Positions 15,495-62,386 are shown, counted from the first letter of the stretch. The stretch: DNA of 64,000 bases from an uncultured Gammaproteobacteria bacterium (GCA_964486995.1 CAZAOV010000003.1:686-64685); one strand, 5' to 3'. The notes: generated by a model not told the origin, from the sequence alone. Numbers and translations: made by a program.

Positions 15495-15495
15495 A

Positions 15496-17742: not shown

Positions 17743-17748
17743 ATAAAT

Positions 17749-20043
17749 ATGAGCAAGAAGAAACGACGACAAAAAGCAGTGTCGAATAAGCATTGGCTGT
17801 CGTGGCTGATTTACATTTGCGCATTGCTCGCTGTAGCCACGCCCCTGCTGTCGCCGTACTGGCCGCTGATTAATTACACCCAGATTAAAACTTTCACTTT
17901 TCAGGCACTGGTCGAGATAATGTTCGTGGCTTGGGTCGTCTTGGCGGTGGCGGACAAGCGCTATCGTCCACGCCGGAACGCCTTGTCAATAACGTTGCTG
18001 CTGTTTATGGGCGCGGTGCTCGCTTCCTTACCTTTCAGCATTGATTCATCGCTGTCGTTTTGGCATATCAGCAATCGCATGACCGGAGTGGTGACTTTGC
18101 TGCATATGGCAGCTTGGTTTTTTGTTCTAGCAAATTCGCTGCATCACCGTGACGAATGGATTAAGCTGTTTAAGATAAGCGGGCTGATTTGTTACGCCAT
18201 CTTAGCGGTTGATTTGGTGGTCTGGTCGGGCAATACGCAAACTTCGGCCATGAAAAAAATATTTGGCAACTCGTTCTACATGATTTCCTATGTCATGCCG
18301 CACGTGTTTCTTGGTCTATATCTGTGGCTACGAGAAAAAACCCATAAAAAATATTTTTGGCTTTCCTTGTCTGTGGTGGCGTCGGTGGCGATTGTATTGA
18401 CGGGAAGCCGTTCTGGAATTCTGGCGTTGATAATTTCGGTGTTCATAGCCGTGCTATGCCTGACGTTGATTTCAGACAAAAGCCGGGGGAAGCGAGCGCT
18501 GATAGTGGTCTTGAGTACGGTCCTTACGCTAGCCGCGGTCGGAGGTTTTTTTGGCTTGCGCACAGAAGCCGGTCGAAATTGGGTTGCTGAAGCCAGTTAT
18601 GTCCCAGGCGCATTTCATCGCATGGCTCACCGAGATTTTGGCGGCGATCGGCTGGCGTTATGGAATATGGCGCTCAAAGGTATAGCCGAACGACCGATTT
18701 TCGGTTGGGGCAATCTGCAGTTCCTGCACGTATCTTCGAAGTATCTGGATATCGACAGCAGTGCCCTAGAGGTACTGAACGAAAGCTGGCAGGACTCCTC
18801 GCACAATCAGTATTTGGATCATTTGATGCATTACGGTGTAGTTGGTTTTACGGCGTATTTGGCGATGTGGATTGGTGTGCTGGTGTTGTTGATCCGCACG
18901 TATCGTCGTGCGGAATCGCTGAACGACAAGCGCAGCTTGCTGTTGGTCGGGGTACTGTTCGTTAATTATCTTATATATACGGTGTTTATTTTTGATACAC
19001 CACAGATGCTGATGCTGATGTTTATGATGTTTGCTTGGCTGGTGTTTATGCGAACTGGGCAGCTCCAGACCGAAGATCAGGATATTCTGGTCGGTAATCC
19101 CTCGGTAACGCTGTTCATGGTTTTGTTGATACCCATGTTGATGTTCTGCTGGTTTGCTAACGGCCAGCATTACGTCGCACAAAAACATTGGATTGCCGGA
19201 GCCGCTGCGGTAAGCGGCGGCAACTGGACTAAAGCGGCGGATGAATTTGGTCAGGCATATGGAAATACATCCAATCCGTACATATACGAGCTGCGCACTT
19301 TTGCTATGGAGCCGACCAGGAATTCCGTCGATTATTATTTTTCTGGCGGTCAGGAGAACGAAGAGGGGATTGACCTGTATCTGAAGACAATGGCTGATGC
19401 CACGACCGCCAATGTGGATGATCATCCGACTAACCCCAAAGCACTCTTCTTGGCTGGGCAGACACATCGGTATTTATACAAAGTAGACGATGCCGCCTGG
19501 CAGCAATCATATGATTACGTTCAGCGGTATCTGGAGATGGCGCCTGATAGATTTGACGCACACCTGCAGATGGCCGAGCTGAATGCCTTACGCGGCAATT
19601 ATGAAGAGGCCCACAAATGGTTCGATTCCGCTTACGAGCGACATTTTCGACTTTCAAGGCAATACGGCGGATTCATTCTGTATCGAAAAGCCTGCATCTA
19701 CGCTCGTCAGCGAAATTTTTCCGCGTTGGCCGAGACTATCTCGAAAAGCGCCAAGGTTTTTCCTGGCCATAAAGATGCGCGCTTAATTCTGATAATGGGA
19801 GAGGTGGTGCAAGAAGGTGATAACTTGAGCGGTTTTGAACCGTTCCTTGATCTTGCCATGACTCATTTTCAGCATGATGTAGAAGTGTTGACCGCTGGTG
19901 CGCGGCTGTATCATGTGCTGGGTCATAACGACATGGTTAGTCAGGTTCTCGAAGTTCCGGCCATGGTGGAATGGGGCAATTCCGAGGAAGGACGGGGACA
20001 ATATGATGCCCTAAAGAGAGAATTGGGCTACATTGAGTGGTAA
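17749..20043 (+). CDS. O-antigen ligase (Wzy_C)-TPR membrane protein (paralog 3 of 4)
   Basis: TGSRSGILALIISV; HNQYLDHLMHYGVVGFTAYLAMW; C-terminal RFDAHLQMAELNALRGNYEEAHKWF TPR-like repeat. Confidence 0.7.
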   Translation: MSKKKRRQKAVSNKHWLSWLIYICALLAVATPLLSPYWPLINYTQIKTFTFQALVEIMFVAWVVLAVADKRYRPRRNALSITLLLFMGAVLASLPFSIDSSLSFWHISNRMTGVVTLLHMAAWFFVLANSLHHRDEWIKLFKISGLICYAILAVDLVVWSGNTQTSAMKKIFGNSFYMISYVMPHVFLGLYLWLREKTHKKYFWLSLSVVASVAIVLTGSRSGILALIISVFIAVLCLTLISDKSRGKRALIVVLSTVLTLAAVGGFFGLRTEAGRNWVAEASYVPGAFHRMAHRDFGGDRLALWNMALKGIAERPIFGWGNLQFLHVSSKYLDIDSSALEVLNESWQDSSHNQYLDHLMHYGVVGFTAYLAMWIGVLVLLIRTYRRAESLNDKRSLLLVGVLFVNYLIYTVFIFDTPQMLMLMFMMFAWLVFMRTGQLQTEDQDILVGNPSVTLFMVLLIPMLMFCWFANGQHYVAQKHWIAGAAAVSGGNWTKAADEFGQAYGNTSNPYIYELRTFAMEPTRNSVDYYFSGGQENEEGIDLYLKTMADATTANVDDHPTNPKALFLAGQTHRYLYKVDDAAWQQSYDYVQRYLEMAPDRFDAHLQMAELNALRGNYEEAHKWFDSAYERHFRLSRQYGGFILYRKACIYARQRNFSALAETISKSAKVFPGHKDARLILIMGEVVQEGDNLSGFEPFLDLAMTHFQHDVEVLTAGARLYHVLGHNDMVSQVLEVPAMVEWGNSEEGRGQYDALKRELGYIEW

Positions 20044-20089
20044 GAATAACTTGTTGATGACATGCCGAAGTTATGCCGAAGCGTGTTAA

Positions 20090-22336
20090 GTGAGTACAAC
20101 TATGGTTTACGCAAATAATAAAATCGCCTCTTGGATGCTTTTGGCAGTCGTAGTCAGTATTGCTGCCATAATTGTGGCCGTGCCGTTATTGCCGGCCTGG
20201 ACTAGTTACACAACCTGTATTTTTTCCGAGGCGACTTTTTTTCAAATCGCGGTGGAGGTGATGCTGGCAGCATGGATACCGCTGGCCTTAGCCACACCAA
20301 GGTTTCGACCGCGTCGAAGTTGGCTTACCGGGGCGGTTGTATTTTACGCCGTCGTTATGATGGCATCTTTGTTTTTTGCGGTTGATCCATCTCTGTCAGC
20401 CTGGTCAAAAGTCACTCGCATGACCGGTGTCATCAATATGCTGCATATTGTTGGCTGGTTTTTGGTCTTGTCTTCCTCGCTGCGCGGCATCAGACAGTGG
20501 CGTTTTCTGCTCACTGCCAGCGTCGTTGTCAGCACCCTAATCAGCATAATCGCCATTATCGAAGGTGTGGCCGGATCAGGTCCTGTTGTGGCTACCATGT
20601 GCAACCAATCATTTTTGGCCGCTTATCTTCTGCCTCATGTGGGGATTGCAATGTTTTTGCTGTTCAGGGAGAAGCAATGGTTCTTTCGTGTAGCTCTATT
20701 GACCACCTCGACCATTCTGCATCTGATTGCGATGTATTTTTCTGCCAGTCGGTCGGGCATGCTGGCGTCACTTATTTTGGTGGCATCGTTCTTGGTGGTG
20801 TTGGTAGCTAGAACAAAGTTTAAGGCGCATAACAGGCGCTTTCTTGTCGCCCTGATTATTATTGCGTTTTGTGCGGTCATCGGGGCGGTCATCGGGCTAC
20901 GTTATTTGTCGGCCGTGGGTAAGTTGGACGCAAATCTGCCTCGACCCGTCAGCCGTCTGGTGCTGAAGGATTTTGGTGATGACCGGTTAGTTTTATGGAC
21001 ATATGCTTGGCGCGGTTTTATGGAGCGGCCCATATTCGGCTGGGGTAACGAACAGTTCAGCACGCTTTATAGCCAGCACTACAACCCGGCCGGTTTGGAT
21101 AAATACGTGTTTAATGAACGATGGCAGGATCGAGCGCATAATCAGTATCTAGATTCACTGGTGTCTTATGGAATTTTCGGGTTTTTGGCCTTTGTATTGA
21201 TTTGGGCGCTGGCCATTAAGCGGGTGCGTTCGTTGTATCGTGATGACGTGCTGGATGTTTATCAGTCATCGATGCTGATGTCGGTGTTTGTGGCGTTGAT
21301 GCTGTTTTACGCGTTCAATTTTGATACGCCGGCCGCGCTTATCGTAATTTACATGTTGTTTGCGTTCTGCGTTGGGGTCAGTCCGCCGCGCCGCGACGAT
21401 CGATTGTTCCATTCGGCTATGTTGGGTGCGGCGTTGATTACCATCAGTTTTGCCGTTGTGGGAATTAGGTTCATAAATGTGGTTCCGGCCATGAGCATGA
21501 AGACTTTCAGCGAAGCCGAGTCAACAATTTTGACCGATGGCATGAAATCGTTCGAAAAATATAGCGTGGCGCTGAAGGGTGTCGGCCCATACAGAAATGA
21601 TTTTAGGCTCAACCACCTGTTTGCCATCCAAAAATATGTCGATCACGCCGGAATGCGCGGTATGCCCCTGGAAACTCTAGTCCGTCAGGCAGTGCATGAA
21701 ACCAAAGATATGGTCGGTGATGCGCCGTACGACTATCGATCGCATTTGGCTAATGCGGTAGCTAATCGGCTAATGGCAGAGTTCGGCGAAGACACCATTC
21801 AAACCGCAAAGGTCAGCGCGCAAAAGGCTCTTGAGTTGGCGCCGACGCGATTTGACGCTCACTTTGAGTTGGGTGAGATTAGTTTAGCTGCGCGGAATTA
21901 TAGACAGTCCGAGCATCATTTTATGCGTGCCATTGAGTATTCTTATTGGAATTTGGCCGGTTTTGATGAATTGGTCTATTATCGCTTAGCTCAGCTGTAC
22001 GTTGAGCAAGGTGATTATGCTATGGCTCGGGAGTGGTTGGCACGCAGTCAGGCGGGTGCGGCATATCCGGCCACTCAAGATGCCAGACTGGTCATGGCCA
22101 TGGATAACCTGTTGGAGACGGATCAGGCCGCATCTGCATTTGCGTTCACATCTTATGTTGATGCGACATTGAATAATTTTATCGTTCATCCGGAGTTGCA
22201 CGCCGCTGCGGCAAGGTATTATGCGGCATTGGGCAACAAGAATCGTGCCGCTCAAATCGTAAATGGCATGGTCGCCACTACACCCGCTTTGGCTCGGCAG
22301 TTGGTAGAAGAATTGGACTTGCCGTTTACTGAATAA
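20090..22336 (+). CDS. O-antigen ligase (Wzy_C)-TPR membrane protein (paralog 4 of 4)
   Basis: SASRSGMLASLILV; HNQYLDSLVSYGIFGFLAFVLIW; C-terminal RFDAHFELGEISLAARNYRQSEHHF. Confidence 0.7.
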   Translation: MSTTMVYANNKIASWMLLAVVVSIAAIIVAVPLLPAWTSYTTCIFSEATFFQIAVEVMLAAWIPLALATPRFRPRRSWLTGAVVFYAVVMMASLFFAVDPSLSAWSKVTRMTGVINMLHIVGWFLVLSSSLRGIRQWRFLLTASVVVSTLISIIAIIEGVAGSGPVVATMCNQSFLAAYLLPHVGIAMFLLFREKQWFFRVALLTTSTILHLIAMYFSASRSGMLASLILVASFLVVLVARTKFKAHNRRFLVALIIIAFCAVIGAVIGLRYLSAVGKLDANLPRPVSRLVLKDFGDDRLVLWTYAWRGFMERPIFGWGNEQFSTLYSQHYNPAGLDKYVFNERWQDRAHNQYLDSLVSYGIFGFLAFVLIWALAIKRVRSLYRDDVLDVYQSSMLMSVFVALMLFYAFNFDTPAALIVIYMLFAFCVGVSPPRRDDRLFHSAMLGAALITISFAVVGIRFINVVPAMSMKTFSEAESTILTDGMKSFEKYSVALKGVGPYRNDFRLNHLFAIQKYVDHAGMRGMPLETLVRQAVHETKDMVGDAPYDYRSHLANAVANRLMAEFGEDTIQTAKVSAQKALELAPTRFDAHFELGEISLAARNYRQSEHHFMRAIEYSYWNLAGFDELVYYRLAQLYVEQGDYAMAREWLARSQAGAAYPATQDARLVMAMDNLLETDQAASAFAFTSYVDATLNNFIVHPELHAAAARYYAALGNKNRAAQIVNGMVATTPALARQLVEELDLPFTE

Positions 22337-42987: not shown

Positions 42988-43986
42988 ATGCCTGAAAAAA
43001 GAACAATTATCAGCGTTAAGAATCTCGTGAAGGATTTTCGCTATCACGAGAAAGCCGAAGGCTTGCGCGGGTCTTTGGTCGCGTTGGTGAAACGCAAAAA
43101 GAAGAATAAGCATGCGGTGCGAAATATTTCGTTTAAGATTCGTCGCGGTGAGTTTGTCGGTTTTATCGGGCCCAACGGAGCGGGTAAGACTACCACGCTG
43201 AAGGTGCTGTCTGGAATATTGACCGCGACTTCCGGCGATGTTCGGGTATTGGGTTTTAATCCAGCTAAACGGGAAAACGATTTTCGTCGGCAGATTTCTA
43301 TCGTGCTCGGCACCAAAGAAAATCTATATCCTACTTTGCCGCCAACCGAATCATTCGAACTGCATCGGTTGATATATGGTGTATCCAAAGATGATTACAA
43401 ACGTCGGCTTAAGCGTTTGGCCAAACTGCTGAACGTCGAAGAATATTTACATCGTCAAACTCGTAAACTTTCATTGGGACAGCGCATGAAGTGCGAGCTG
43501 ATTCAGTCTCTGCTCCATGACCCGAAGGTGTTGTTCTTGGATGAACCGACTATCGGTTTGGACGTATTGTCGCAGCGCCGTATTCGAAAATTCTTAACCG
43601 AATACAACCAGCGAAAAGGGACGACCATAATTTTGACTTCGCACAATATGGACGACGTAGAGGACTTGTGCGCGCGGTTGATTATCATTAACGAAGGTGA
43701 GATTGGTTATGATGGATCGCTTGATAAAATCATTCACGATTACAGTAAGGTGAGGTACATTAGTGCGCGTTTTGGGCATGCGGTTCTGCGCGAAAAGTTA
43801 GAGACACTAGGAGATGTGGTCGAGTATTCACCGCTCGAAGTGCAACTGTGTGTACCGACTGCGGACATCCCAAAAAGAATTAATGAATTGACCACACGGT
43901 TTGATGTGAAAGATATTGGACTCCAAGACGTGCATCTGGAAGAAATTGTCAGCGATATTTTCGTCAAAGCCGAACATAATGAATAA
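42988..43986 (+). CDS. ABC transporter ATP-binding protein
   Basis: Walker A GPNGAGKTT, signature LSLGQRMK, Walker B LFLDEPTIGLD, H-loop TSHNMDD. Confidence 0.85.
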   Translation: MPEKRTIISVKNLVKDFRYHEKAEGLRGSLVALVKRKKKNKHAVRNISFKIRRGEFVGFIGPNGAGKTTTLKVLSGILTATSGDVRVLGFNPAKRENDFRRQISIVLGTKENLYPTLPPTESFELHRLIYGVSKDDYKRRLKRLAKLLNVEEYLHRQTRKLSLGQRMKCELIQSLLHDPKVLFLDEPTIGLDVLSQRRIRKFLTEYNQRKGTTIILTSHNMDDVEDLCARLIIINEGEIGYDGSLDKIIHDYSKVRYISARFGHAVLREKLETLGDVVEYSPLEVQLCVPTADIPKRINELTTRFDVKDIGLQDVHLEEIVSDIFVKAEHNE

Positions 43987-44225
43987 TGACAGATCCAGAA
44001 CGCAATCGCGAAAACAAAGAATTACATTGGGAAAAACGCCGGCTGGCCGAACGCATCGAGAAAGACTTGCGAGAGCGGCTGAACGCCGGTAAGGAAACCA
44101 TGCCCGACATGGTGACCTGCCCCAACCAGTCATGTCGCTATCCGTTGCGGGTGAAATTTTTCGGGGACCGTGTCGAAGTCACCTGCCAGAACTGCGACTT
44201 CAGGCGAATCATCAAAAAGGATTAA
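43986..44225 (+). CDS. Small zinc-ribbon protein (CPNQSC...CQNC)
   Basis: 79 aa. ATG overlaps the ATPase stop. Two CxxC pairs. Bidirectional terminator gaccaccg-gcgggtggtc+TTTT at 44227-44256. Confidence 0.45.
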   Translation: MTDPERNRENKELHWEKRRLAERIEKDLRERLNAGKETMPDMVTCPNQSCRYPLRVKFFGDRVEVTCQNCDFRRIIKKD

Positions 44226-44266
44226 TAAAAAAGACCACCGGCGGGTGGTCGTTTTAATGTTGAAGT

Positions 44267-45061
44267 TCATTTTTCGTCAGGTTCGTGACTCCAGCCCCTC
44301 TCGGTCTCGCACATACCGGTTATGGTGGTCATGAAATCGATGGTCAGCTTCATGGCGTGATACATCGGTTCGTTGATGCATACCAGAGTGGCGCAGTCCT
44401 CGTCGTCGCTCGTCTCTTCGGTCGGCAGCATGCCGGCCAGGCAGACACCCACCGCCTTGAGGTTGGTAAACGTATCCTTGTCGAAACCGACTCGAATGTC
44501 CAGACGTTCCACTGGCTCGGTCGGCTCCTCGCAACTGCAGTTTGGTCGGCCACAACCGGTGCCTCCCTTGCTGATGCAGTTGGGTCCGCAGTCGTGACTC
44601 TCGGAGCATTCGTGGTCGTGTGACTCGTCGCAGTCGTCGGCCTGGTCGCAATTGCTGCAATCGCCATCGCATTGATGCTGTTGCGCCGAGTAGGAGAAGA
44701 CCCGCCAGCGCGCATCGATTACGATGTTTACATGGTCCGCGATGTTGTATCGAGTACGTACGGCGCGCTCGAATAGGAACAAGAGCGCATTGATGAGTAG
44801 TGCGTGCGGGCGCATGCGCGGTAGATGGTTGGCATTTGGGTCGTCCGGCTGCCGCGAGATTTCCACCGCCCGCTCACGCGCATCGACGAACAGCGCATAC
44901 AAGCGCTTGATCTCCGGTTCGGTAATCGTGCAGAGCTGCTGAAAATTTGGCTCGTCGTCGAGTTCTGGCGTCTTGGTCGGCGCTACCCCCGTGTCGGCAT
45001 CAAGGCGCAGATTCTGCGCCAGTCGATCAACGGTGGACTTGGTGAGCATCCACATGGACAT
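44267..45061 (-). CDS. Hypothetical Cys/His/Asp-rich protein, paralog C of a three-gene family
   Basis: IKRLYALFVDARERAV...IADHVNIVIDARWRVFSYS, then CDGDCSNCDQADDCDESHDHECSESHDCGPNC...C.C. Aligns with the two upstream genes. Confidence 0.5.
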   Translation of the reverse strand: MSMWMLTKSTVDRLAQNLRLDADTGVAPTKTPELDDEPNFQQLCTITEPEIKRLYALFVDARERAVEISRQPDDPNANHLPRMRPHALLINALLFLFERAVRTRYNIADHVNIVIDARWRVFSYSAQQHQCDGDCSNCDQADDCDESHDHECSESHDCGPNCISKGGTGCGRPNCSCEEPTEPVERLDIRVGFDKDTFTNLKAVGVCLAGMLPTEETSDDEDCATLVCINEPMYHAMKLTIDFMTTITGMCETERGWSHEPDEK

Positions 45062-45157
45062 TCAGCCTCCTTTCAATGAACAGTTTTTAGGTTACGCCCG
45101 CAATGAGGCAACGTCAATAATGACAAAATTACCCGAGTAAATCGGGTGATGTGCTGA

Positions 45158-45532
45158 CTATTTTGTCAGGTCGAGCGCAATCACTTGCCAGCCCTGAACA
45201 GTCCAGATATTTGAATCTTGGACATCGAGAAGTTTGGGCCGGCGTCGGCGGAGGCCGTAGTAGAACGTCGTGCGGATAGCATCGATGGCGAAACTGGCCT
45301 GCTTGATACGACGAACGTCTTCCTCGGGTGGTTGATACTCGCCCGTGCCGACGTCGCAGATGGAAAGGTGTTCGGCGATTTCCGTCCCGCCAAAGTGGTA
45401 GTAGCTATATAGCCGCTTGAGATCGTCGTCGTCGATGGCACCAATCAAGTGACACGTGGGTGATCCACCCGTTGATGCAGTTCTGGTTCTACGATTTTGG
45501 TGCTGGCGACATCTTTTTCGAGATATCGCCAT
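45158..45532 (-). CDS. Hypothetical protein, paralog B (LKRLYSYY...NIWTVQGWQVIALD)
   Basis: Shares the (I/L)KRLY..., RR.....A..I, and (I/V).(V/T)(V/I)...W(R/Q)V blocks with its neighbours. Confidence 0.4.
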   Translation of the reverse strand: MAISRKRCRQHQNRRTRTASTGGSPTCHLIGAIDDDDLKRLYSYYHFGGTEIAEHLSICDVGTGEYQPPEEDVRRIKQASFAIDAIRTTFYYGLRRRRPKLLDVQDSNIWTVQGWQVIALDLTK

Positions 45533-45546
45533 TATTTAAATATGTC

Positions 45547-46017
45547 TTACTCCTTTACTTCTTCGTCAGTGCCTGACGATTGCTCCGGCTTATTCTGTTT
45601 TCCCGCAGCCGGACAAGCCGCCGAGCAGCTGCCACACATCGAGGGCGGGGAAGTGGAATATACTCGCCAACCTTCCACCACCACGATTTCGCGTGAGTCC
45701 GTAATGTCATAAGTGAATCGCATGTCAGCATCGAGCAGAAGCTTGAACGACTGCATGATATTCATCCACCGACGCAAACCAATCGCGTCCGCATCTTCCG
45801 GATTTGTCGCTTGGCGACGCAGGCGATGCATCGTCAATGCCTGCTCGCGCGCTTGCTGTATCAACGAATACATCTGCTGGGCACCGTTCGCATCCAGCAC
45901 TCCATGAAACTGAATATCCGGAATCTTCTCATACTCATCCGGATCATCCGGAGCCAACACAATGTCCGAATCCAACCCATGCATCCCAGCCAACGCCTCA
46001 ACGATGTCCTTGCGCAT
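45547..46017 (-). CDS. Hypothetical protein, paralog A (QQMYSLIQQAREQAL...REIVVVEGWRVYSTS...CGSCSAAC)
   Basis: First gene of the minus-strand operon. Shares conserved blocks with paralogs B and C. Has a C-terminal CxxCxxxC. Confidence 0.45.
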   Translation of the reverse strand: MRKDIVEALAGMHGLDSDIVLAPDDPDEYEKIPDIQFHGVLDANGAQQMYSLIQQAREQALTMHRLRRQATNPEDADAIGLRRWMNIMQSFKLLLDADMRFTYDITDSREIVVVEGWRVYSTSPPSMCGSCSAACPAAGKQNKPEQSSGTDEEVKE

Positions 46018-46169
46018 ATCTCCTCCGTTTTAATGGACGGACTTACATTATATATAAGCGCATTTTGACGTCAAACATCAGGAGATAAAATAACCCGGCT
46101 ATTTTGGGGATTATATAGACAGGCCACCGCATGGGCTTGACGTTTTTATGAGGTGGCCTTATTATGCCA

Positions 46170-46196
46170 TTAGCAGTCCATGGGTTAGACTGCTAA
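46170..46196 (+). promoter_or_regulatory. CIRCE-like HrcA operator variant TTAGCAGTC-N9-GACTGCTAA
   Basis: The consensus CIRCE is TTAGCACTC-N9-GAGTGCTAA. Here the CA(C>G)TC and GA(G>C)TG positions change symmetrically. It lies 80 nt upstream of hrcA. Confidence 0.65.
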
Positions 46197-46207
46197 TCCA
46201 TTAATAT

Positions 46208-46270
46208 CCTGCCTGTCTGTACTTTCTTGAGTACAGACAGGCAGTACTTGAGAAAGTACAGACAGGCAAG
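46208..46270 (+). promoter_or_regulatory. Second N9 inverted repeat CCTGCCTGTCTGTAC-TTTCTTGAG-GTACAGACAGGCAG, followed by a third half-site (TACTTGAGAAA-GTACAGACAGGCAAG) abutting the hrcA start
   Basis: Read directly from the sequence. Same 9-nt-spacer geometry as CIRCE but with unrelated arms. The half-site GTACAGACAGGCA(A)G occurs twice in direct orientation. Confidence 0.55.
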
Positions 46271-46275
46271 AATGC

Positions 46276-46977
46276 ATGAGCGACTCACCAGAAAAAAGAA
46301 AGCTGCGCATACTGAAGGCTGTGGTGCGCGAGTATTTGGAGACGGCCGAACCAGTCAGCTCTGGAGCTTTAGTTTCTAAATACGACTTGGGAGTTTCGCC
46401 GGCGACGGTTCGTAATGATATGGTCGAGCTGACCGAACGCGGATTACTGGAACAGCCGCACACTTCGGCTGGACGTCGGCCGACCGAAGCTGGGTATCGG
46501 CTGTATGTGCAGGAGTTCGTCGGCGACGGCATTCGAATTATGGAAGACGTGATTTGTCAGGTGCAGTTCATGGCTGCGGAACTGGCTCGCCAGCGCAAAG
46601 CCGCAGCGCAGCATTTTGCACGCTATGTGTCCGAGCTTACCGGCGAGACCGCGTTCGTCAGTTATAACGATGCGGTGTTTATGACTGGTGTCAGCAACCT
46701 CTTCCGCAAGCCGGAGTTCCGCACGCTCGAATTAATGCAGGACTTCTCGGTCATGTTCGACCAGATTGATGACTTGGTGCGTGACGTGCGGCCGCGAATG
46801 AACGCCGATATTGCTATTTATATCGGTCGGGAAAACCCTTTCTGTCCACGGCTATCGTCGGTGCTGACCAGTTGGGATCGGGGTGAGGGTCTAATTGGCA
46901 TCATCGGTCCGACTCGTATGGACTATGAATTAAACGTTGGCGTCATGCGTCAGGTGCATGAGGCTTTGGAGACATAA
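46276..46977 (+). CDS. hrcA: Heat-inducible transcription repressor HrcA
   Basis: RKLRILKAVVREYLETAEPVSSGALVSKYDLGVSPATVRNDMVELTERGLLEQPHTSAGRRPTEAGYRLYV is the HrcA N-terminal wHTH. It precedes grpE-dnaK-dnaJ. Confidence 0.9.
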   Translation: MSDSPEKRKLRILKAVVREYLETAEPVSSGALVSKYDLGVSPATVRNDMVELTERGLLEQPHTSAGRRPTEAGYRLYVQEFVGDGIRIMEDVICQVQFMAAELARQRKAAAQHFARYVSELTGETAFVSYNDAVFMTGVSNLFRKPEFRTLELMQDFSVMFDQIDDLVRDVRPRMNADIAIYIGRENPFCPRLSSVLTSWDRGEGLIGIIGPTRMDYELNVGVMRQVHEALET

Positions 46978-49594: not shown

Positions 49595-49891
49595 ATGCAA
49601 TCTCAACAACAGAACCAAAAACAACTCCAACTAAAAGCCGACGACGCAACCCTCAAAGGCGTGTACACCAACAACATGCAGGTTGCACACACCAAGGAGG
49701 AGTTCATCGTTGACTTCATGAACATGTTCCCGCCGGTGGCGACGCTGAACGCGCGGGTCATCGTGTCGCCCGGACACATGAAGCGCATGCTCGCCGCGCT
49801 TGCCGAGAACGTCAAGCGCTACGAAGAAACCCATGGCGTCATCGAAGCGGCCAACGCCCCGGAGAACGAGATGGGTTTCAAGACTGCGTAG
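49595..49891 (+). CDS. DUF3467 family protein, inserted between dnaK and dnaJ
   Basis: LKGVYTNNMQVAHTKEEFIVDFMNMFPP matches the DUF3467 core (YAN...V.HT.EEF.LDF). 98 aa. Confidence 0.55.
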   Translation: MQSQQQNQKQLQLKADDATLKGVYTNNMQVAHTKEEFIVDFMNMFPPVATLNARVIVSPGHMKRMLAALAENVKRYEETHGVIEAANAPENEMGFKTA

Positions 49892-54664: not shown

Positions 54665-57600
54665 ATGAAGTACGCTGTATCCACCCGAACACATTGGGCG
54701 ATGCTTATTGTGCTGACGGTTGTTTTTGTATTTGTTTCATTTTTTACCTCAGTCGATTTGGTTCGCGCAGTAACGTATTGCCCCTATGACAGCACACAAG
54801 CGACCTGCGAATGTCCCACGTCCGGTCCTGGGGTGACCTGTATTGAGCCGCAGCTCTACGCCCAGGGTTCTTGCTACAACGATGTCCGGCCGTGCGCTTC
54901 GAATCAGCGCATGAATTGCGATACCGGCAGTTGCGTCTGTAACACGCCCGATTATCCGTGTTCCGGCTGTACCGCGGCTCAGACCACAGTGGGCGCGATT
55001 TGCGATCACCGTTCGACCGACGCTGGCGATTGTGCCGACAGCTCTGAATACACTAGCCAGTGCGGAGCATGGACTTGCCCTGCAGGTACGACTCTGTGTA
55101 ATTCTCCGGCCCCCGGGGTATGTGTACCCAACCGCACCTGTCCGCCGGGTATGACTTGGGACGTTTGTAGTGACACTTGCTCAACGTACTACGTTTTGAC
55201 CAATCCAACCCCAGAGGTTTCGCCACAGCCGGCCAACCCAGAAATCGAAGGTAATTTCACCGTGTTTGGTGACGATGCCGGAGAGGGTGATATCTACATG
55301 TCCAACGGCAAGGCATTGCGCGTGGACGGAACCGGTTCCACCACTCTGAATATCGGCAACTGGGGCGGCGGCGGCTTTTCGTTCGAGGCCTTTGGCTCAC
55401 TCAAGGCCGACGATATCACGACTGACACCGGCAACATTGATTCTACGACCGGCACTCTAAATCTTGGAGGCGGCGCATCTTCTAGCGGATGTACGGTTAC
55501 CACCGCTGGAGACTACAGCTGCAGCGGTGATTTTGTCGAAGCCGGTGCGCCACTATCGAACAAGTATTTGGCGTATGACAGTTACGTGCAGAGCAACAAC
55601 CCCTTCAGCCCCAAAGGAAAATTTTTCATCCCGGAAATTAATAACGGATTCTTTCGTGGTGAATCTAGATTTGCCGTAAATCATACTGGATTCGATCATT
55701 TCTGCTCGACCAATTATCTTTTTGATAACAATTATGAAAGTGGGTGCATCATCGGCACTGGCGGTGGACCTGCCGTAGTTACTATTGATTTGACGGCAAA
55801 AACTGAGTTTTCACCGACTTCAGGTATTGTCTATCCTCAAGGCTATATTTACTTCAACATAAATTATACATTTGGCATTCAGAGTGTTAGCGGTCGGATG
55901 TTTTGGTCGCACCCGTCTAATGGCACGTCTGGTTGGGTAACTCTGTCCGCAGAAGATGTTAGTGCAGCCAGTCAGTTACAACAGTGGAGGATGACTGTTC
56001 CGGCAGTTGTGAATTACGTCAAAAAATTTGAATTTACCATCGAAGCACTCCCCACTGCACCCAGTCCACCCAATCCGCAGCATAACGGCTGGATAACCGA
56101 GATTGAATACTTTCAGACGCGTCCAGCTGGCGCTGCTCCGTCGCTTTTTACAAAATACAAGGAAAATAGGACCTATTCGAATTTTTATTTAAATGATGCT
56201 GCCAATTCCCCGGTAGTGACGTTGGACACCTCAGGAAACATCGATGCGGAGGGAGATATTGGAGTGGGTGATGCGCTGTGCCTGCGCGGCGATTGTATCA
56301 CCGATTGGATGGATGGTTTTACGCCAGGCAGCTCTAGCGGTGATACGTTGCGCTGGAACGGCACCGATTGGATTGCGAGTTCCAATCTGACAAATACGGG
56401 TACGCGGGTTGGCATAGGCACGGATACCCCGGCGGGCGCGTTGGATGTTCATCCTGGAGGTGCGCAAACTGCTGGCGACTTGGTGGTCGATACTACCGGC
56501 AAGACAGTATACGTCGGTCGCATTAGCACCACGGGGGGCGACAACAGCAATTTCGTGTTTAGAGATCGGCTGGGCAACGCCAGATTTACGCTGTCCCCTG
56601 GCATGCATCGCTGGAATCCGGAAGTCGGACACATTATGCTGATGCCGTCATCTTCCTATGGTGTTGCGGTTGGTGCGGCAAATGCCGGTACAGCCAAACT
56701 ATATGTAAACGGCAGTCTCGGCGTTAATACCAGCAGTCCGGCATATGATGTCGACATTGACGGAGACGTACGTATCACGGGGCAGTTGATAGTTGAAGGT
56801 GGCGGCGTAATTGGCGGCAGTGGCACGGCTAATACCATACCCAAATTTACCGCCGGTTCGATAATTGGTAATTCTGCCATTACAGAATCTGGCGGAAACG
56901 TTGGTATCGGAGACGTATCCCCAGCCACCATCCTGGATTTGAATAATACCTATGGAGATCCCGGAACAGTTCCAAATAAAATCGCACTGTGGTATGGCGG
57001 AGCCAATAACTATATGGGTTTCGGTGTGAGTGGTGGTGATTTAGATTATTTCTCTCAGGGGAATCATCGTTTCTATACTCAGTACAATGGCACACCCGGC
57101 ACTGAAAAGATGGTGATTGCGGACAACGGTAACGTTGGTATCGGCACATCTAGTCCCGTGCTCAAACTTCAGGTCACGGGTGATATACAGGCCAGTGATG
57201 GAATAGGTTTTGGTGGTCTGTCCCCGGGATATGTTTTAGGCGGGAGGCCGTTTAGCATGGCTGGCCGGAGTCCGCAAGAAGATGCTGGTGCCGCCGTTTT
57301 GTTCGGTAGCGGTGCATACGGACCAAACTATATCGAATTGATGCGGCAAAGTTACGGGATTTTAAGCAATAGCCACATCTACACCACTGCCAATATCTAT
57401 TCGTATGGACATACATACTTAGGCGACGCAGCCACTGATACCGTTTTTTGGCGAAGTGCTAATAGTTACATATATAACGATCACAATTTCCGTGACGCTG
57501 TGACCGGCAGTACGATGTTGTATCTGGACAATGATACGCAATATGTTGGAGTCAATACCACTACGCCGACTCGAACCCTGTCGGTTGCTGGAGATATCGC

Positions 57601-60600
57601 GGTTGGCAGCAACCAATACATAACTGAGTATGGCGCTAGTCTCCGTGTCGGGAACCCCTCGGGATACGTGAGCATTACCCCGCAAAATACTAGCTATGCG
57701 CATTTTTACACTGATAGACCTAAATTCATTTTTAATAAGCCGATAGATGTTATCGGCGGTCGTTACGGCTCCTATACCGGTAACGTAATTTTAAGTGCTG
57801 GGAGCATTCGGGATGATTTGGTCATCGATAATGCTACCGGTGTCACCACCATCAATAATGGCTTGCGTCTGCCGACCGGTGCGGTGGCCGGTCATGCCCT
57901 AGTGTCAGACGCCAGCGGTAACGCTACTTGGCAGGCGTTGAGTGGAATTGGCGGCGGAGGTACACAGAATTACTTGCCGAAGTTTTCGGCGGCGACCACA
58001 TTAGCTGATTCCCAAGTTTATGATAACGGCTCAAATGTTGGTATCGGTACAGCCACCCCCGAGTATAAATTGGACGTTAATGGAGACATCGTTAATCGCG
58101 GCCGACTCTATCAATATACTCAGCTTGGCTCGTCAAACGCAGCACACGGCATCAGCTGGTATCAACCGAGTTACGTGACTTGGATTGACTACATGGCCGC
58201 ACCTGGTACGGTCAACGCACCAAATGGCACGCCGGCACCGGCCGATTCAGATAACGGCGTCACTCATTGGGCGCGTCGATTTAACATCGAAAATCAGGCG
58301 AACTTCGGCTGGGTGTTCGAATCCGGCACAAACAACGCCACACAGCCGAGCGTCAAGCTGTCCATTAACGCCGCTTCTGGAAACTTACATACAGTCGGCT
58401 CCGGTTATTTTGACGATAATGTCGGCGTGGGAACTACGACTCCTAGCGCACCATTGCATGTAGCATCAGCAGATTCGGCAAATCCGGGCATCCAGGTAGG
58501 TGACGGCAGTACCGGTCGAATTCAGATTGGCGTAAACGGCTGGTTTGATGATGGGACATATTTCAGCCCGATTGGCGGCAGATCACTCTATGTACGCTCA
58601 ACTACTCCGGCTACTTACATTTATTCTCCCAATATCTTTCTTGGTTCTACTACCGGTCAGTACGTTCGTGTACGTGACAATCAGTTGTTTGGCGACGATT
58701 GGGTAATCAATAATGGTTTCGGTGGCAATTGGGGGATCGGCACCATCACCCCGGCGTACACCCTAGATGTCAATGGGACCGTTCGTGTTACTGACTCGCT
58801 GATAATCGACGGCAGTAACGCCATTACCGACCCAGACGACACCAAGAACACCATGCTTGGCTATAATGCCGGTCAGAACATCACTACTGGCTGGGGTGTT
58901 ACATTGATTGGTGAATACGCCGGTGCCGAACACACGACCGCTTATGCCAACACATTCGTTGGTTATCAGTCCGGCGAATCGGTGTCGGGTGTGGGAAATG
59001 CAACTTCGAACGTGGTCATGGGTTTTCGCGCTGGTCGATGGCTTACGGGATCAGAAAATACTCTAATCGGTACCGAAGCTGGAGCCGGATATAACGCAGG
59101 AAGTTGTTGCGATTATGTTGGCGGAGAGAATTCTGGCTCAGAGAATACCTTTGTCGGTATTTTTGCTGGAAATCGCAACTCCACCGGCAGCTATAATGTT
59201 GGCCTGGGTAAGCATGCCGGGTACTACAATACCGTCGGTAACCTAAATACCTATCTTGGTTATCAAGCCGGCCTGTATCACCAGGGGAGTCAGAACATCA
59301 TTATCGGCGGGGATGCCGGGGCGCAAACGAGCGGCGATTCCAGTACCGGGAATAACCTAATCTTGATTGGCTACGGAATTCAGCCACGCACCACTGCCGT
59401 CAGCGATTATTTGAACATTGGCGACACTTTGTATGGTGATTTGGCTGCCGGACGAATTGGTATCGGGACAGCTGCTCCTGCCAGGGCGCTTGACTTAAGC
59501 AGTTCTGGCCAAATAACTTTCGGTAACAACGTGACCTTGGATTCGACCGCCGGTATTTATTGGTACAGCGGTTCTGATTACGGCATCTATCGCGGTGCCG
59601 GTGCTTGGTCGAGCCCTGACTATCGGCAACTGTACATGAAGTGGTCCACGGGCCTGGTTTTAGACGGAGGTAGCGCATACGGCAAGAGTGGCACCACTAT
59701 TCAGCCTGGCGCTGGAAATGTTGGTATTGGTACTTATCCCTCGGCGTATAAGTTAGATGTTAATGGTCAGGTAAACGGTACCGAGCTGTGTATCGCCGGT
59801 GACTGTCGTAGCGTTTGGCCCGGTGCCGGTGCGACGAGCGGATCTGGTGTGCAGTATGGCACGACGGTTTGGTCGGGCGGCAGCACCTTGACTTCGGTTG
59901 GCACCGGACAGCCCGGACAGCTGTATATTTCCAAAGGGGCTTCCGCATATCCAGAATTTGTCACGATGAGCGGTGATGCGACCATTTCTTCGACCGGTGT
60001 AGTGACTGTTGCAAACGGTTCACATACGCATAGTGCCGCTAATATCACATCAGGAATATTGGCGGTAGCCCGCGGTGGAACCGGCAGCAGCACCCTGAGC
60101 AATCTCATCACCCTTGGCACGCATACGACCGGCAATTACGTTAACGATATAACCGCTGGCACCGGAATTACGGTCAGTGGAGTGGCCGGCGAAGGCTGGA
60201 GTCCGACCCTTGCGGTGGACGAGGGTGCATTAACCCTCGGTAACATCGGCGGCTCGCTGTCATTGGGAACTAAGACCAGTGGAGACTACGTTGCGTCACT
60301 GATTGCCGGTAGTGGGGTAACCATAACTGGCGGGACGGGTGAAGGTTCCACCCCCACCATCAGCGTGAGCGGTGGCGCAGTGCCAAGCGGACCGGCCGGC
60401 GGAGACTTAAACGGCAACTATCCTAATCCGCAGGTTGATAACAATTCACATACGCACATTTCCAGCAATATTACCGGCTCTGCGGCTGGGCAGTTTATGG
60501 TTTCAAATTCATCAAATGTTCCTACATGGGTAAGTATGAGTGGTGACGCTTCGATGAATTCCGCTGGGAGTGTAACCGTGAGTAACAACTCACACGTCCA

Positions 60601-62386
60601 TACATTGGGGTCATACACCACCGGTGATTATGTCGAGGGCTTGGTTGCCGGCTCCGGAATTAGCATTACTGGAAGCGGTGGTGAGGGTTCGCTTCCGGTC
60701 ATTACTGCCACTGGTGCCCCGCCGTCCGGTAGCGCTGGCGGTGATTTGAGTGGCAGTTATCCTAACCCACAAGTTAATAATAATTCCCACTACCACGTGG
60801 ACTCAAATATCTACGGAGGTGCCAGCGGTCAGGTGCTGATTGCCGACAATAGCGGATACGGTGATTGGAGAACCGTGGGCGGGGACGCGAGCATCAACTA
60901 TGTGGGTACATTGACCATCAATTCCAATGCTGTGGACTTAGGCGGAAACACTACCGGAGACTATGTTAAAGGTCTGCAGGCCGGCTCCGGCATCAGCATC
61001 AGCGGCAGCGGCGGCGAAGGCTCCAGTCCGATTATTAGCTCTACAATCAGTAGTCCGTGGTCGGTCAGCGGTTCAAATGTATATCGTAGTTCTGGCATGG
61101 TCGGAATACTGGACTCTTCACCGAGCTATCCGCTCGACGTCAATGGCATCATCCGTTCAACTAGCAGCATCTACGGAAACTACGGTTCATTCACCACTGG
61201 CTTGTCAGCCGGTACCGAATCATTATTCCTGGTCACCGATTCAAGTGGCCGGGTGGACGTCAATGGCACGTTTTGTATCAATAGTTCTTGTCGCACTACC
61301 TGGCCGTCTGCATCCAGCCCCTGGACCACCAGCGGCAGCAATGTCTATCGATCTTCCGGTAATGTCGGCATAGGCACGTCCGCGCCGTCGTATAATCTGG
61401 ACGTCTCCGGCACCGGACGTTTTACCGGAACAGTCTCGACCGGAGGTGCGAGCGTCTCTTCCTCTTACGGTATCCGCGCGCAGGGTTCAACGATGGGCGG
61501 TTACTTTAACGATACGGACGGTACTTATGTGTATATCGGTTACGGCACCAGTGGAATCTACACGCCCGGCGGAGCGTATTTTGGAGGTCCAGTCGGAATC
61601 AATACCTCGTCTCCAGTCGGTGATTTCCAGGTCATCGGTGACGCGAACGTAAGCGGCAGTCTGTTCGGAAATTTTGTATATGGCAACAGCGCCTCGTTTT
61701 CGGGAACCGTGGAAGGCGACGATTTCTTCTCGCCTGGCAACGCCGCCTTCGGCGGAGCGACAGCCAGCACCAGCTATGGGCTAAAGGCGCAGGGTTCTAC
61801 TATGGGCGGATGGTTTTATGACGAGGGCGGAACGTCAAGAACTTATCTGGCTTACGGTGGTTATGGGGTATATGTTTCGACAGGTAGTGCCGCAAAACCA
61901 GGTGGCGGCAGCTGGACATCTACCTCTGATAGGCGAACCAAGAAGGATATCAGTTCTTTTAACGGGGGGCTAGATCTTGTCGATCAGCTTAATCCCGTCA
62001 ATTACACATATAACGGCTTGGCCGAAACACCGGAGGGATTGGAAGGCATAGGGTTCATCGCACAAGATATCATGGATGTGACTCCGTGGATGGTGGAAAG
62101 CAACTCGATAAAGCTTCATCCGGAAGATGAAGAAGAAAGTGACGTATATTATGTTAATCCCAGTTCCCTGCCTTTCATAAATTTGAATGCTATCAAGGAT
62201 TTGAAGGCGCTGATTGATGATGAGAATGCCGAGTTGGCCTCTTTCAAGATTGACACCGATGGTCGTATGGTTGAGGTGGAAGCGGCGGTGCGGAAGTTGG
62301 AGGAAGAAAATGTAGAGTTAAAAGCTAAGACCGAAGAATTGGAACAGCGATTACAGCAGCTTGAATGGCAGATGTTGAGCAACTAG
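54665..62386 (+). CDS. 2573-aa secreted/surface fibre protein: signal/TM, an N-terminal Cys-rich module of about 150 aa, a long Gly/Thr/Ser-rich beta-helix-like region with phage tail-fibre-type repeats, then a C-terminal Peptidase_S74 (endosialidase-type intramolecular chaperone) domain and a coiled-coil tail
   Basis: N-terminus MKYAVSTRTHWAMLIVLTVVFVFVSFF. About 30 Cys in residues 40-190. Recurrent GNVGIGT..P...LDVNG units (at least 7 copies). Three C(I/L).GDC(R/I)(S/T).W motifs. Recurrent NNSH.H and GDYV..L.AGSGI.I.G units. C-terminal TSDRRTKKDISSFNGGLDLVDQLNPVNYTYNG...GIGFIAQDIMDVTPWMV matches the S74 autoproteolytic chaperone signature (S-D-R-x-K...Y.Y...G.IAQE). Confidence 0.8.
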   Translation: MKYAVSTRTHWAMLIVLTVVFVFVSFFTSVDLVRAVTYCPYDSTQATCECPTSGPGVTCIEPQLYAQGSCYNDVRPCASNQRMNCDTGSCVCNTPDYPCSGCTAAQTTVGAICDHRSTDAGDCADSSEYTSQCGAWTCPAGTTLCNSPAPGVCVPNRTCPPGMTWDVCSDTCSTYYVLTNPTPEVSPQPANPEIEGNFTVFGDDAGEGDIYMSNGKALRVDGTGSTTLNIGNWGGGGFSFEAFGSLKADDITTDTGNIDSTTGTLNLGGGASSSGCTVTTAGDYSCSGDFVEAGAPLSNKYLAYDSYVQSNNPFSPKGKFFIPEINNGFFRGESRFAVNHTGFDHFCSTNYLFDNNYESGCIIGTGGGPAVVTIDLTAKTEFSPTSGIVYPQGYIYFNINYTFGIQSVSGRMFWSHPSNGTSGWVTLSAEDVSAASQLQQWRMTVPAVVNYVKKFEFTIEALPTAPSPPNPQHNGWITEIEYFQTRPAGAAPSLFTKYKENRTYSNFYLNDAANSPVVTLDTSGNIDAEGDIGVGDALCLRGDCITDWMDGFTPGSSSGDTLRWNGTDWIASSNLTNTGTRVGIGTDTPAGALDVHPGGAQTAGDLVVDTTGKTVYVGRISTTGGDNSNFVFRDRLGNARFTLSPGMHRWNPEVGHIMLMPSSSYGVAVGAANAGTAKLYVNGSLGVNTSSPAYDVDIDGDVRITGQLIVEGGGVIGGSGTANTIPKFTAGSIIGNSAITESGGNVGIGDVSPATILDLNNTYGDPGTVPNKIALWYGGANNYMGFGVSGGDLDYFSQGNHRFYTQYNGTPGTEKMVIADNGNVGIGTSSPVLKLQVTGDIQASDGIGFGGLSPGYVLGGRPFSMAGRSPQEDAGAAVLFGSGAYGPNYIELMRQSYGILSNSHIYTTANIYSYGHTYLGDAATDTVFWRSANSYIYNDHNFRDAVTGSTMLYLDNDTQYVGVNTTTPTRTLSVAGDIAVGSNQYITEYGASLRVGNPSGYVSITPQNTSYAHFYTDRPKFIFNKPIDVIGGRYGSYTGNVILSAGSIRDDLVIDNATGVTTINNGLRLPTGAVAGHALVSDASGNATWQALSGIGGGGTQNYLPKFSAATTLADSQVYDNGSNVGIGTATPEYKLDVNGDIVNRGRLYQYTQLGSSNAAHGISWYQPSYVTWIDYMAAPGTVNAPNGTPAPADSDNGVTHWARRFNIENQANFGWVFESGTNNATQPSVKLSINAASGNLHTVGSGYFDDNVGVGTTTPSAPLHVASADSANPGIQVGDGSTGRIQIGVNGWFDDGTYFSPIGGRSLYVRSTTPATYIYSPNIFLGSTTGQYVRVRDNQLFGDDWVINNGFGGNWGIGTITPAYTLDVNGTVRVTDSLIIDGSNAITDPDDTKNTMLGYNAGQNITTGWGVTLIGEYAGAEHTTAYANTFVGYQSGESVSGVGNATSNVVMGFRAGRWLTGSENTLIGTEAGAGYNAGSCCDYVGGENSGSENTFVGIFAGNRNSTGSYNVGLGKHAGYYNTVGNLNTYLGYQAGLYHQGSQNIIIGGDAGAQTSGDSSTGNNLILIGYGIQPRTTAVSDYLNIGDTLYGDLAAGRIGIGTAAPARALDLSSSGQITFGNNVTLDSTAGIYWYSGSDYGIYRGAGAWSSPDYRQLYMKWSTGLVLDGGSAYGKSGTTIQPGAGNVGIGTYPSAYKLDVNGQVNGTELCIAGDCRSVWPGAGATSGSGVQYGTTVWSGGSTLTSVGTGQPGQLYISKGASAYPEFVTMSGDATISSTGVVTVANGSHTHSAANITSGILAVARGGTGSSTLSNLITLGTHTTGNYVNDITAGTGITVSGVAGEGWSPTLAVDEGALTLGNIGGSLSLGTKTSGDYVASLIAGSGVTITGGTGEGSTPTISVSGGAVPSGPAGGDLNGNYPNPQVDNNSHTHISSNITGSAAGQFMVSNSSNVPTWVSMSGDASMNSAGSVTVSNNSHVHTLGSYTTGDYVEGLVAGSGISITGSGGEGSLPVITATGAPPSGSAGGDLSGSYPNPQVNNNSHYHVDSNIYGGASGQVLIADNSGYGDWRTVGGDASINYVGTLTINSNAVDLGGNTTGDYVKGLQAGSGISISGSGGEGSSPIISSTISSPWSVSGSNVYRSSGMVGILDSSPSYPLDVNGIIRSTSSIYGNYGSFTTGLSAGTESLFLVTDSSGRVDVNGTFCINSSCRTTWPSASSPWTTSGSNVYRSSGNVGIGTSAPSYNLDVSGTGRFTGTVSTGGASVSSSYGIRAQGSTMGGYFNDTDGTYVYIGYGTSGIYTPGGAYFGGPVGINTSSPVGDFQVIGDANVSGSLFGNFVYGNSASFSGTVEGDDFFSPGNAAFGGATASTSYGLKAQGSTMGGWFYDEGGTSRTYLAYGGYGVYVSTGSAAKPGGGSWTSTSDRRTKKDISSFNGGLDLVDQLNPVNYTYNGLAETPEGLEGIGFIAQDIMDVTPWMVESNSIKLHPEDEEESDVYYVNPSSLPFINLNAIKDLKALIDDENAELASFKIDTDGRMVEVEAAVRKLEEENVELKAKTEELEQRLQQLEWQMLSN

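Follow-up and report, generated by a model that had tools for sequence, protein, structure and literature searches.

A rare cysteine-bearing protein family of Patescibacteria encoded divergently from CIRCE-hrcA

The HrcA repressor and its operator CIRCE (controlling inverted repeat of chaperone expression) form the heat-shock switch found most widely among bacteria, and the sole established input to it, to our knowledge, is chaperone titration through GroEL. Two other described systems bear on the locus reported here. The gene for the metallothionein SmtA is divergent from smtB, a winged-helix repressor gene, and DafA of Thermus thermophilus is a lineage-specific DnaK-DnaJ assembly factor that comes from the dnaK operon and works by binding the chaperones. 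We analysed a 64,000-nucleotide stretch of DNA catalogued under an uncultured Gammaproteobacteria bacterium (GCA_964486995.1, CAZAOV010000003.1:686-64685; hereafter the window), in which three consecutive minus-strand genes, A, B and C, lie back-to-back with CIRCE and the hrcA-grpE-dnaK genes. Their products are paralogs of one family that is very rare and limited to one small branch of Patescibacteria, and its placement next to CIRCE-hrcA is the strongest clue to what it does.

The stress biology of the Candidate Phyla Radiation (CPR)/Patescibacteria is almost unknown. The family would be a concrete candidate for a redox or metal input to HrcA in these bacteria, whose HrcA lacks a domain, and our literature search found no paper tying hrcA to such a neighbour in the CPR.

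Genes A, B and C and their shared domain

The first-pass annotation of this DNA had placed three genes of 156, 124 and 264 residues here, and its coordinates proved exact. The open reading frames (ORFs) and the parts of C are as follows (pI, isoelectric point; pLDDT, predicted local distance difference test).

45547-46017, minus strand: gene A, an ORF of 156 aa, pI 4.7, with the N-domain, a short Cys tail and an acidic end
45158-45532, minus strand: gene B, an ORF of 124 aa, pI 9.1, with the family N-domain only and no Cys tail
44267-45061, minus strand: gene C, an ORF of 264 aa, pI 4.6
44687-45061, minus strand: residues 1-125 of C, the N-domain common to all family members, delimited by alignments and pLDDT
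44531-44671, minus strand: residues 131-177 of C, the Cys-rich insert with clusters I and II
44291-44506, minus strand: residues 186-257 of C, the C-terminal domain, with helices 195-209 and 231-255, an INEPMY-AMK motif and a conserved Cys251

C is laid out as N-domain, Cys-rich insert, C-terminal helical domain and acidic tail, and it is the type that most loci retain. All members of the family are acidic (pI 4.1-5.6) except the B of the window.

A, B and C are real paralogs of one family, as had been suggested. A matches C directly (BLASTP E=1e-12, 28% identity across 123 aa). The pairwise similarity of B to its paralogs is marginal (E=0.04 and 0.007), and B is recovered by the family profile both in a search of 1.84 billion proteins (E=5.5e-18) and in a local search (E=1.2e-18). 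The motifs quoted for the three proteins are present in large part: the tryptophan motif occurs in the three proteins as GWRVYS, GWQVIA and RWRVFS, A contains CGSCSAAC, C contains the long Cys run, and KRLY is found in B and C but is replaced by QQMY in A. A-type orthologs are found in L007, L027, P0010 and others, intact B-type orthologs in three loci besides the window (L004, L007 and L027), and the orthologs of C are 37-58% identical.

Genes A and C have strong ribosome-binding sites, GGAGGAG at 6 nt upstream of A and AGGAGG for C, while that of B is poorly spaced. The first ~27 residues of B are Arg-rich and stand in place of the N-terminal helix of its orthologs, and a second frame, one that has no start codon, encodes an ortholog-like peptide, IVEPELHQRVDHPRV (window 45450-45546). 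Compared in this way, the start of B looks frameshifted, through either gene decay or assembly error. These features of B would also suit the view that the ORFs are spurious or decaying, with no functional product. We give that view next to no credence, given that the A, B and C types are each intact in several lineages, with nonsynonymous divergence (dN) below a saturated synonymous divergence (dS), and that the model of the shared domain is a high-confidence one.

Structure prediction, which the first-pass annotation had proposed for each paralog and which was run for C, gave a good AlphaFold2 model from a 16-sequence alignment (mean pLDDT 79.9, and >90 across most of residues 10-125). The predicted N-domain consists of a helix (residues 8-18), a strand (41-45), a long hairpin of two helices (49-70 and 80-105) and, at 112-124, a beta-hairpin that ends in the family signature GW(K/R)V(Y/F). 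Within the family alignments W119 is invariant and D109 nearly so. The C-terminal helical domain of C is modelled with pLDDT 76-90 and is shared with the long-type members P0009 and P0015.

No relative of these proteins was recognised, in agreement with the first impression of an unrecognised family. Scans of A, B and C against Pfam, NCBIfam, PHROGs and PADLOC gave no significant match, nor did a Pfam scan of all 20 collected family members, the best library match being Fer4_10 on A (E=0.032, 14.6 bits against a cut-off of 25.5). The family profile had no significant match among all PDB sequences. Foldseek searches of two models against the PDB gave no significant match (best E 0.46 and 1.2), and the better model had none in BFVD (best E 0.1). 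As far as sequence and predicted structure go, the tools used give the A, B and C family no place in a known family or fold. The ~125-residue alpha/beta N-domain is a candidate new fold, and its confident prediction and lack of a detectable structural relative make it of interest independent of function.

Placement beside CIRCE-hrcA

We find one to four family genes immediately divergent from CIRCE-hrcA-grpE-dnaK in ten out of ten independent loci. These ten are the loci with enough flanking sequence to be informative, L004 and L022 being too short to judge, and the family genes beside hrcA are arranged as follows.

Window: A-B-C
L007: A-B-C-D
L027: B-A-C
L001, L003, L005 and L009: C in each
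L008 and L021: a long-type gene in each
L023: an A-type gene

Each of the ten loci has at least one Cys-bearing member, and CIRCE stands beside a family gene in 13 fetched loci. The adjacency survives family identity down to ~20-25%, changes in paralog number from one to four, and turnover of the intergenic sequence. The 480-bp gap of L003 holds no remnants of A or B. The link to the heat-shock locus drawn in the first-pass annotation is borne out by this arrangement, and its proposed search for homologs and their neighbours returned a rare family that is divergent from hrcA wherever the flank sufficed.

Word-indexed searches of 5.8 billion proteins returned five C-type sequences and, for A, only A itself; a third such search added the D type only. 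When 1.84 billion cluster representatives were searched exhaustively with the family profile, 12 family proteins were recovered. A scan of metagenome contigs gave solely duplicates of loci already known, and a scan of GTDB genomes with C patterns found none, although those patterns also missed L009, which was later found via HrcA. L009, a metagenome-assembled genome named "Patescibacteria group bacterium", is the closest named genome that carries the family, and another carrier is NCBI assembly GCA_043804985.1 (L027). All carriers are Patescibacteria-like contigs, and family genes occur solely where HrcA is at least 54% identical to that of the window. In more distant Patescibacteria and in Rokubacteria loci, family genes are absent within 6 kb of hrcA. 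We add the caveat that CPR genomes often contain orphan families. For the same genome pairs the family evolves ~5 times faster than hrcA (dN 0.55-0.58 vs 0.11-0.13), a figure that, with synonymous sites saturated, is meaningful only as a comparison of dN with hrcA and grpE.

The features that surround the family genes in the window are listed below.

46276-46977, plus strand: hrcA, the first gene of hrcA-grpE-dnaK-DUF3467-dnaJ (Pfam HrcA, 1.8e-17)
46170-46196: CIRCE, TTAGCAGTC-N9-GACTGCTAA, directly downstream of the hrcA -10 and the sole copy in the window
46137-46165, plus strand: hrcA promoter-like site, TTGACG-17-TATTAT
46047-46074, minus strand: A(-B) promoter-like site, TTGACG-16-TATAAT, a near-consensus sigma-70 site with 11 of 12 matches
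45131-45147, minus strand: weak terminator-like hairpin in the B/C interval
45089-45117, minus strand: C promoter-like site, TTGACG-17-TAACCT, followed by a conserved leader, TCATTGAAAGGAGGC
44233-44250: bidirectional intrinsic-terminator-like hairpin between C and a convergent 79-aa Zn-ribbon ORF
46211-46222, 46231-46242 and 46256-46267: GCCTGTCTGTAC repeats, with a degenerate copy at 46113-46124

The three genes had been read as a single operon that could be co-regulated with hrcA through a shared operator. Neither part of that reading is supported. A, B and C probably form two transcription units, in tandem, because a hairpin lies between B and C and because C has a promoter-like site of its own that is conserved in L003, where the stand-alone C is preceded by TTGACG-17-TAACGT and the same leader as in the window. 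CIRCE adjoins the hrcA -10, at a distance of ~95 bp from the -35 of the independent A promoter (46074-46069), and therefore HrcA bound there is not placed to occlude the A promoter. No CIRCE overlaps or directly follows the A promoter, so by position A does not qualify as a member of the CIRCE/HrcA regulon. The same geometry of CIRCE and promoter is found in the single-gene loci. A perfect 12-bp palindrome, TTTGACGTCAAA (46063-46074), overlaps the -35 of the A promoter and is not conserved in other loci.

The HrcA of the window is short, at 233 aa, and is without the ~100-residue inserted dimerising domain of the full-length reference, the T. maritima protein (~residues 112-213 of 1STZ). This deficit, together with the similar size of the family N-domain and its three strands mixed with helices, raises the idea that the family supplies the missing domain in trans. 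We disfavour it as barely plausible: alignment of the family with full-length HrcA by hhalign gave a probability of 0.1%, 1STZ was not among the top 50 Foldseek matches listed, and a short HrcA is widespread among Patescibacteria with no family member within 6 kb. L010-L015 are Patescibacteria loci in which the short form is seen.

The hrcA leader, from CIRCE to the ATG at 46276, holds three exact copies of GCCTGTCTGTAC, one of them inverted. These repeats fold into a hairpin of 25-28 bp (46207-46271; -55 kcal/mol, z = -7.85) that stops 5 nt short of the hrcA start codon, inside the hrcA transcript, and as folded it would bury any hrcA ribosome-binding site. It may serve to block translation, as a site for RNase III or as a second operator, or it may be a small mobile palindrome. 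L001 and L007 have related palindromes on the opposite side of the hrcA promoter. Repeat-bearing leaders of hrcA that parallel that of the window are also seen in L021 (3045-3135) and L023 (3469-3640), with a different palindromic motif, GGTGCCTGGC(A/T)C, present in two copies in L021 and in four within a ~75-bp tandem duplication in L023.

A divergent layout of this kind is typical of a regulator and its target, and the family could on that ground be a DNA-binding transcription factor acting on the GCCTGTCTGTAC repeats or palindromes. Indeed, GCCTGTCTGTAC occurs nowhere else in the window than in the hrcA/A intergenic region, and the related palindromes of the two other loci point the same way. 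We nevertheless consider such a factor very unlikely, for the proteins are acidic and match no helix-turn-helix or other DNA-binding domain, the family-bearing loci L003, L005, L009, L021 and L023 lack the motif in their intergenic regions, and the repeats of the window form a leader hairpin within the hrcA transcript.

Two neighbouring genes recur in other loci. The DUF3467 gene (49595-49891, plus strand), between dnaK and dnaJ, has the same order in L001, L023 and L027 and is a conserved, uncharacterised member of the dnaK operon of this lineage. The 79-aa ORF (43986-44225, plus strand), convergent on gene C, encodes a basic Zn-ribbon (CPxxxC...CxxC) and overlaps the stop of an ATP-binding cassette transporter ATPase gene (ATGA). 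Its homologs are equally placed in L003, L009 and L027 and not in L007, and its library matches are weak, to IBR and RecQ-Zn only.

Elsewhere in the window, four tandem paralogs of ~750 aa (13209-22336, plus strand) each carry TPR repeats after a Wzy_C (O-antigen ligase-like) membrane domain. A giant ORF of 2573 aa (54665-62386, plus strand) has a single Pfam match, to a C-terminal Peptidase_S74 (endosialidase intramolecular chaperone) domain, which points to a surface protein of a self-cleaving, fibre or adhesin-like kind.

Cysteine clusters and a possible accessory role

The Cys of the A and C types lie directly after the N-domain, in a stretch that is also rich in Gly and Asp and bears three to nine of them. 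The tail of A reads C128-x2-C131-x3-C135-P, and among other A types the run is CGGCGGGCGGCGGGC-like or absent. In C, cluster I is C131-x3-C135-x2-C138-x5-C144 and cluster II is C158-x3-C162-x7-C170-x4-C175-x-C177. Eight of these nine Cys (C131, C135, C138 and all five of cluster II) are invariant in an alignment of eight C-type inserts, and the five closest C-type proteins all have C144. P0009 and P0015 carry CxxCxxCxxxC runs, and the numbers of Cys and of Gly-Cys repeats vary widely among members. The insert of C has low pLDDT in the model, which was built without metal.

The description of the family as Cys/His-rich is apt for Cys in the A and C types but not for His, which is not conserved in the C-type alignments, nor for types B and D or the A-type protein of L027, from which the Cys cluster is missing. 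The suggestion of Zn, Fe or redox chemistry, drawn from composition, is consistent with these patterns to the extent that the way the Cys are conserved and spaced suits metal-thiolate or Fe-S chemistry.

The reading we favour, which we hold tentatively and at somewhat under an even chance, is that the family is a stress-sensing or stress-buffering, Cys-cluster accessory of the heat-shock system, or else a stress-activated holdase. We propose it because a Cys-bearing member is always back-to-back with CIRCE-hrcA-grpE-dnaK. The family is a set of lineage-restricted, acidic, cytoplasmic proteins built on a common ~125-residue alpha/beta domain. In this reading the Cys cluster of the A and C types would bind Zn, or possibly an Fe-S cluster, via thiolates. 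As a redox or metal switch, the protein may then sense or buffer thiol-reactive stress such as oxidants and soft metals, and may pass the signal on by contact with HrcA or with the DnaK/DnaJ machine; alternatively, it could itself act as the holdase once activated by stress. The Cys-less paralogs B and D would be partner subunits. Action via protein-protein contacts is favoured because the proteins are acidic and carry no DNA-binding signature. The function so described is inferred from composition and gene order.

Several observations weigh against this accessory role. The position of CIRCE does not suit control of the family promoters, and part of the conserved adjacency may be due to common descent within a small clade and not to selection. 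The B and D types and the A type of L027 have no Cys tail, and therefore whatever function the common domain has needs none. Resemblance to metallothioneins is limited to 14 aligned columns, with the Pfam metallothionein models unmatched.

A more specific form of the proposal, which we rate as unlikely, makes the family a structurally new, Patescibacteria-specific sensor. Its metallothionein-like Zn-thiolate (or Fe-S) cluster would respond to oxidants or soft metals, and the sensor would act directly on short HrcA or on DnaK/DnaJ, giving the CIRCE regulon a second input; the paralogs A to D would assemble into hetero-oligomers. If a role of this kind were true, the CIRCE heat-shock regulon would have a redox or metal input in minimal-genome bacteria.

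Comparison with known metal and redox proteins

The closest parallel for the Cys-rich insert is with the prokaryotic metallothioneins SmtA/BmtA (Metallothio_Pro; the sequence of SmtA, a cyanobacterial protein, was confirmed against PDB 1JJD), in which nine Cys, plus His, form a Zn4 cluster. SmtA and the C type both have nine Cys arranged 4+5, and the spacing of cluster II is nearly that of SmtA C32-x3-C36-x10-C47-x4-C52-x-C54. They share a GCGxxxCxC motif, and in both His adjoins the Cys cluster. The gene arrangement is also alike, the family being divergent from a winged-helix repressor gene as smtA is from smtB. The 14 columns aligned by hhalign between the C-type insert and SmtA are 43% identical (pairwise E=0.012, probability 3.7%). 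SmtA differs in that the cluster of C is inserted, with a large unrelated domain on either side, that C is without the N-terminal zinc-finger-like part of SmtA, and that the spacing of cluster I is unlike SmtA. Pfam metallothionein models gave nothing at E<=10 but Metallothi_Euk2 (0.72), and the PDB profile search was empty; the likeness is one of resemblance, and with no profile match we do not assign the family to SmtA/BmtA.

This likeness gives rise to the main rival explanation, a metallothionein-like store or detoxifier of Zn, Cd or Cu that has no mechanistic link with HrcA or DnaK and owes its place to gene order inherited within a small clade. Beyond the layout and motif common with SmtA, the wide variation in Cys and Gly-Cys repeat number and the family promoters, which are its own and independent of CIRCE, are in keeping with it. 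An adjacency kept at ~20-25% identity, through gene gain and loss and intergenic turnover, argues against inherited order, and large conserved non-Cys domains and Cys-free paralogs would be unexpected in such a store. The Pfam model for prokaryotic metallothioneins is also unmatched. On balance we think a metal store improbable, with a chance that is small but real.

An Fe-S cluster is possibly the alternative to Zn-thiolate, because some members show ferredoxin-like runs or a Wbl-like spacing. Cluster I of the window C contains the C-x2-C-x5-C spacing of WhiB-like (Wbl) proteins, the runs of P0009 and P0015 recall ferredoxins, and A has CxxCxxxCP together with its weak Fer4_10 match. Unlike in those proteins, the Cys spacing varies across the family, the matches are below Pfam thresholds, and neither fold is seen in the model. 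We do not place the family among the WhiB-like [4Fe-4S] proteins, which are helical, of ~80-120 aa, and conserve C-Xn-C-X2-C-X5-C: the spacing seen in the window C varies among its orthologs, and there is no Pfam match.

A third group of likenesses concerns Hsp33 (HslO), the RsrA/ZAS anti-sigma factors and anti-TRAP, in that a Cys cluster could couple oxidation or metal loss to altered protein-protein interaction in a stress regulon. The Gly-rich CGGCGGGC runs of some A-type members further recall the CxxCxGxG of anti-TRAP and DnaJ. The family has no sequence or fold similarity to Hsp33, ZAS or anti-TRAP, and the Hsp33 CxC...CxxC, the ZAS HxxxCxxC and the four CxxCxGxG are not present in it as such. 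With no Pfam, PDB-sequence or Foldseek match and no CxC...CxxC zinc centre, it does not belong with Hsp33, and PF00684, the DnaJ-type zinc finger, matches the DnaJ of the window and no family member.

Hsp33-like logic is still the basis of a rival explanation in which oxidation or metal loss unfolds part of the protein and exposes client-binding surfaces, making it a redox-activated holdase. The position at a heat-shock locus would suit this, as would the acidic, cytoplasmic character of the proteins and a Cys cluster that lies between two folded domains and is of low confidence or disordered in the model. We regard it as less probable than the metal store, considering that no similarity in sequence or fold extends to Hsp33 or other chaperone families, that Cys-free paralogs exist, and that such fast sequence evolution is unusual among general chaperones.

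For the accessory role that we tentatively favour, the nearest parallel is DafA. It differs in being encoded inside the operon and in having no Cys cluster, and no homology is expected. DafA sets a precedent for small, clade-restricted proteins that are encoded with dnaK and bind the chaperones.

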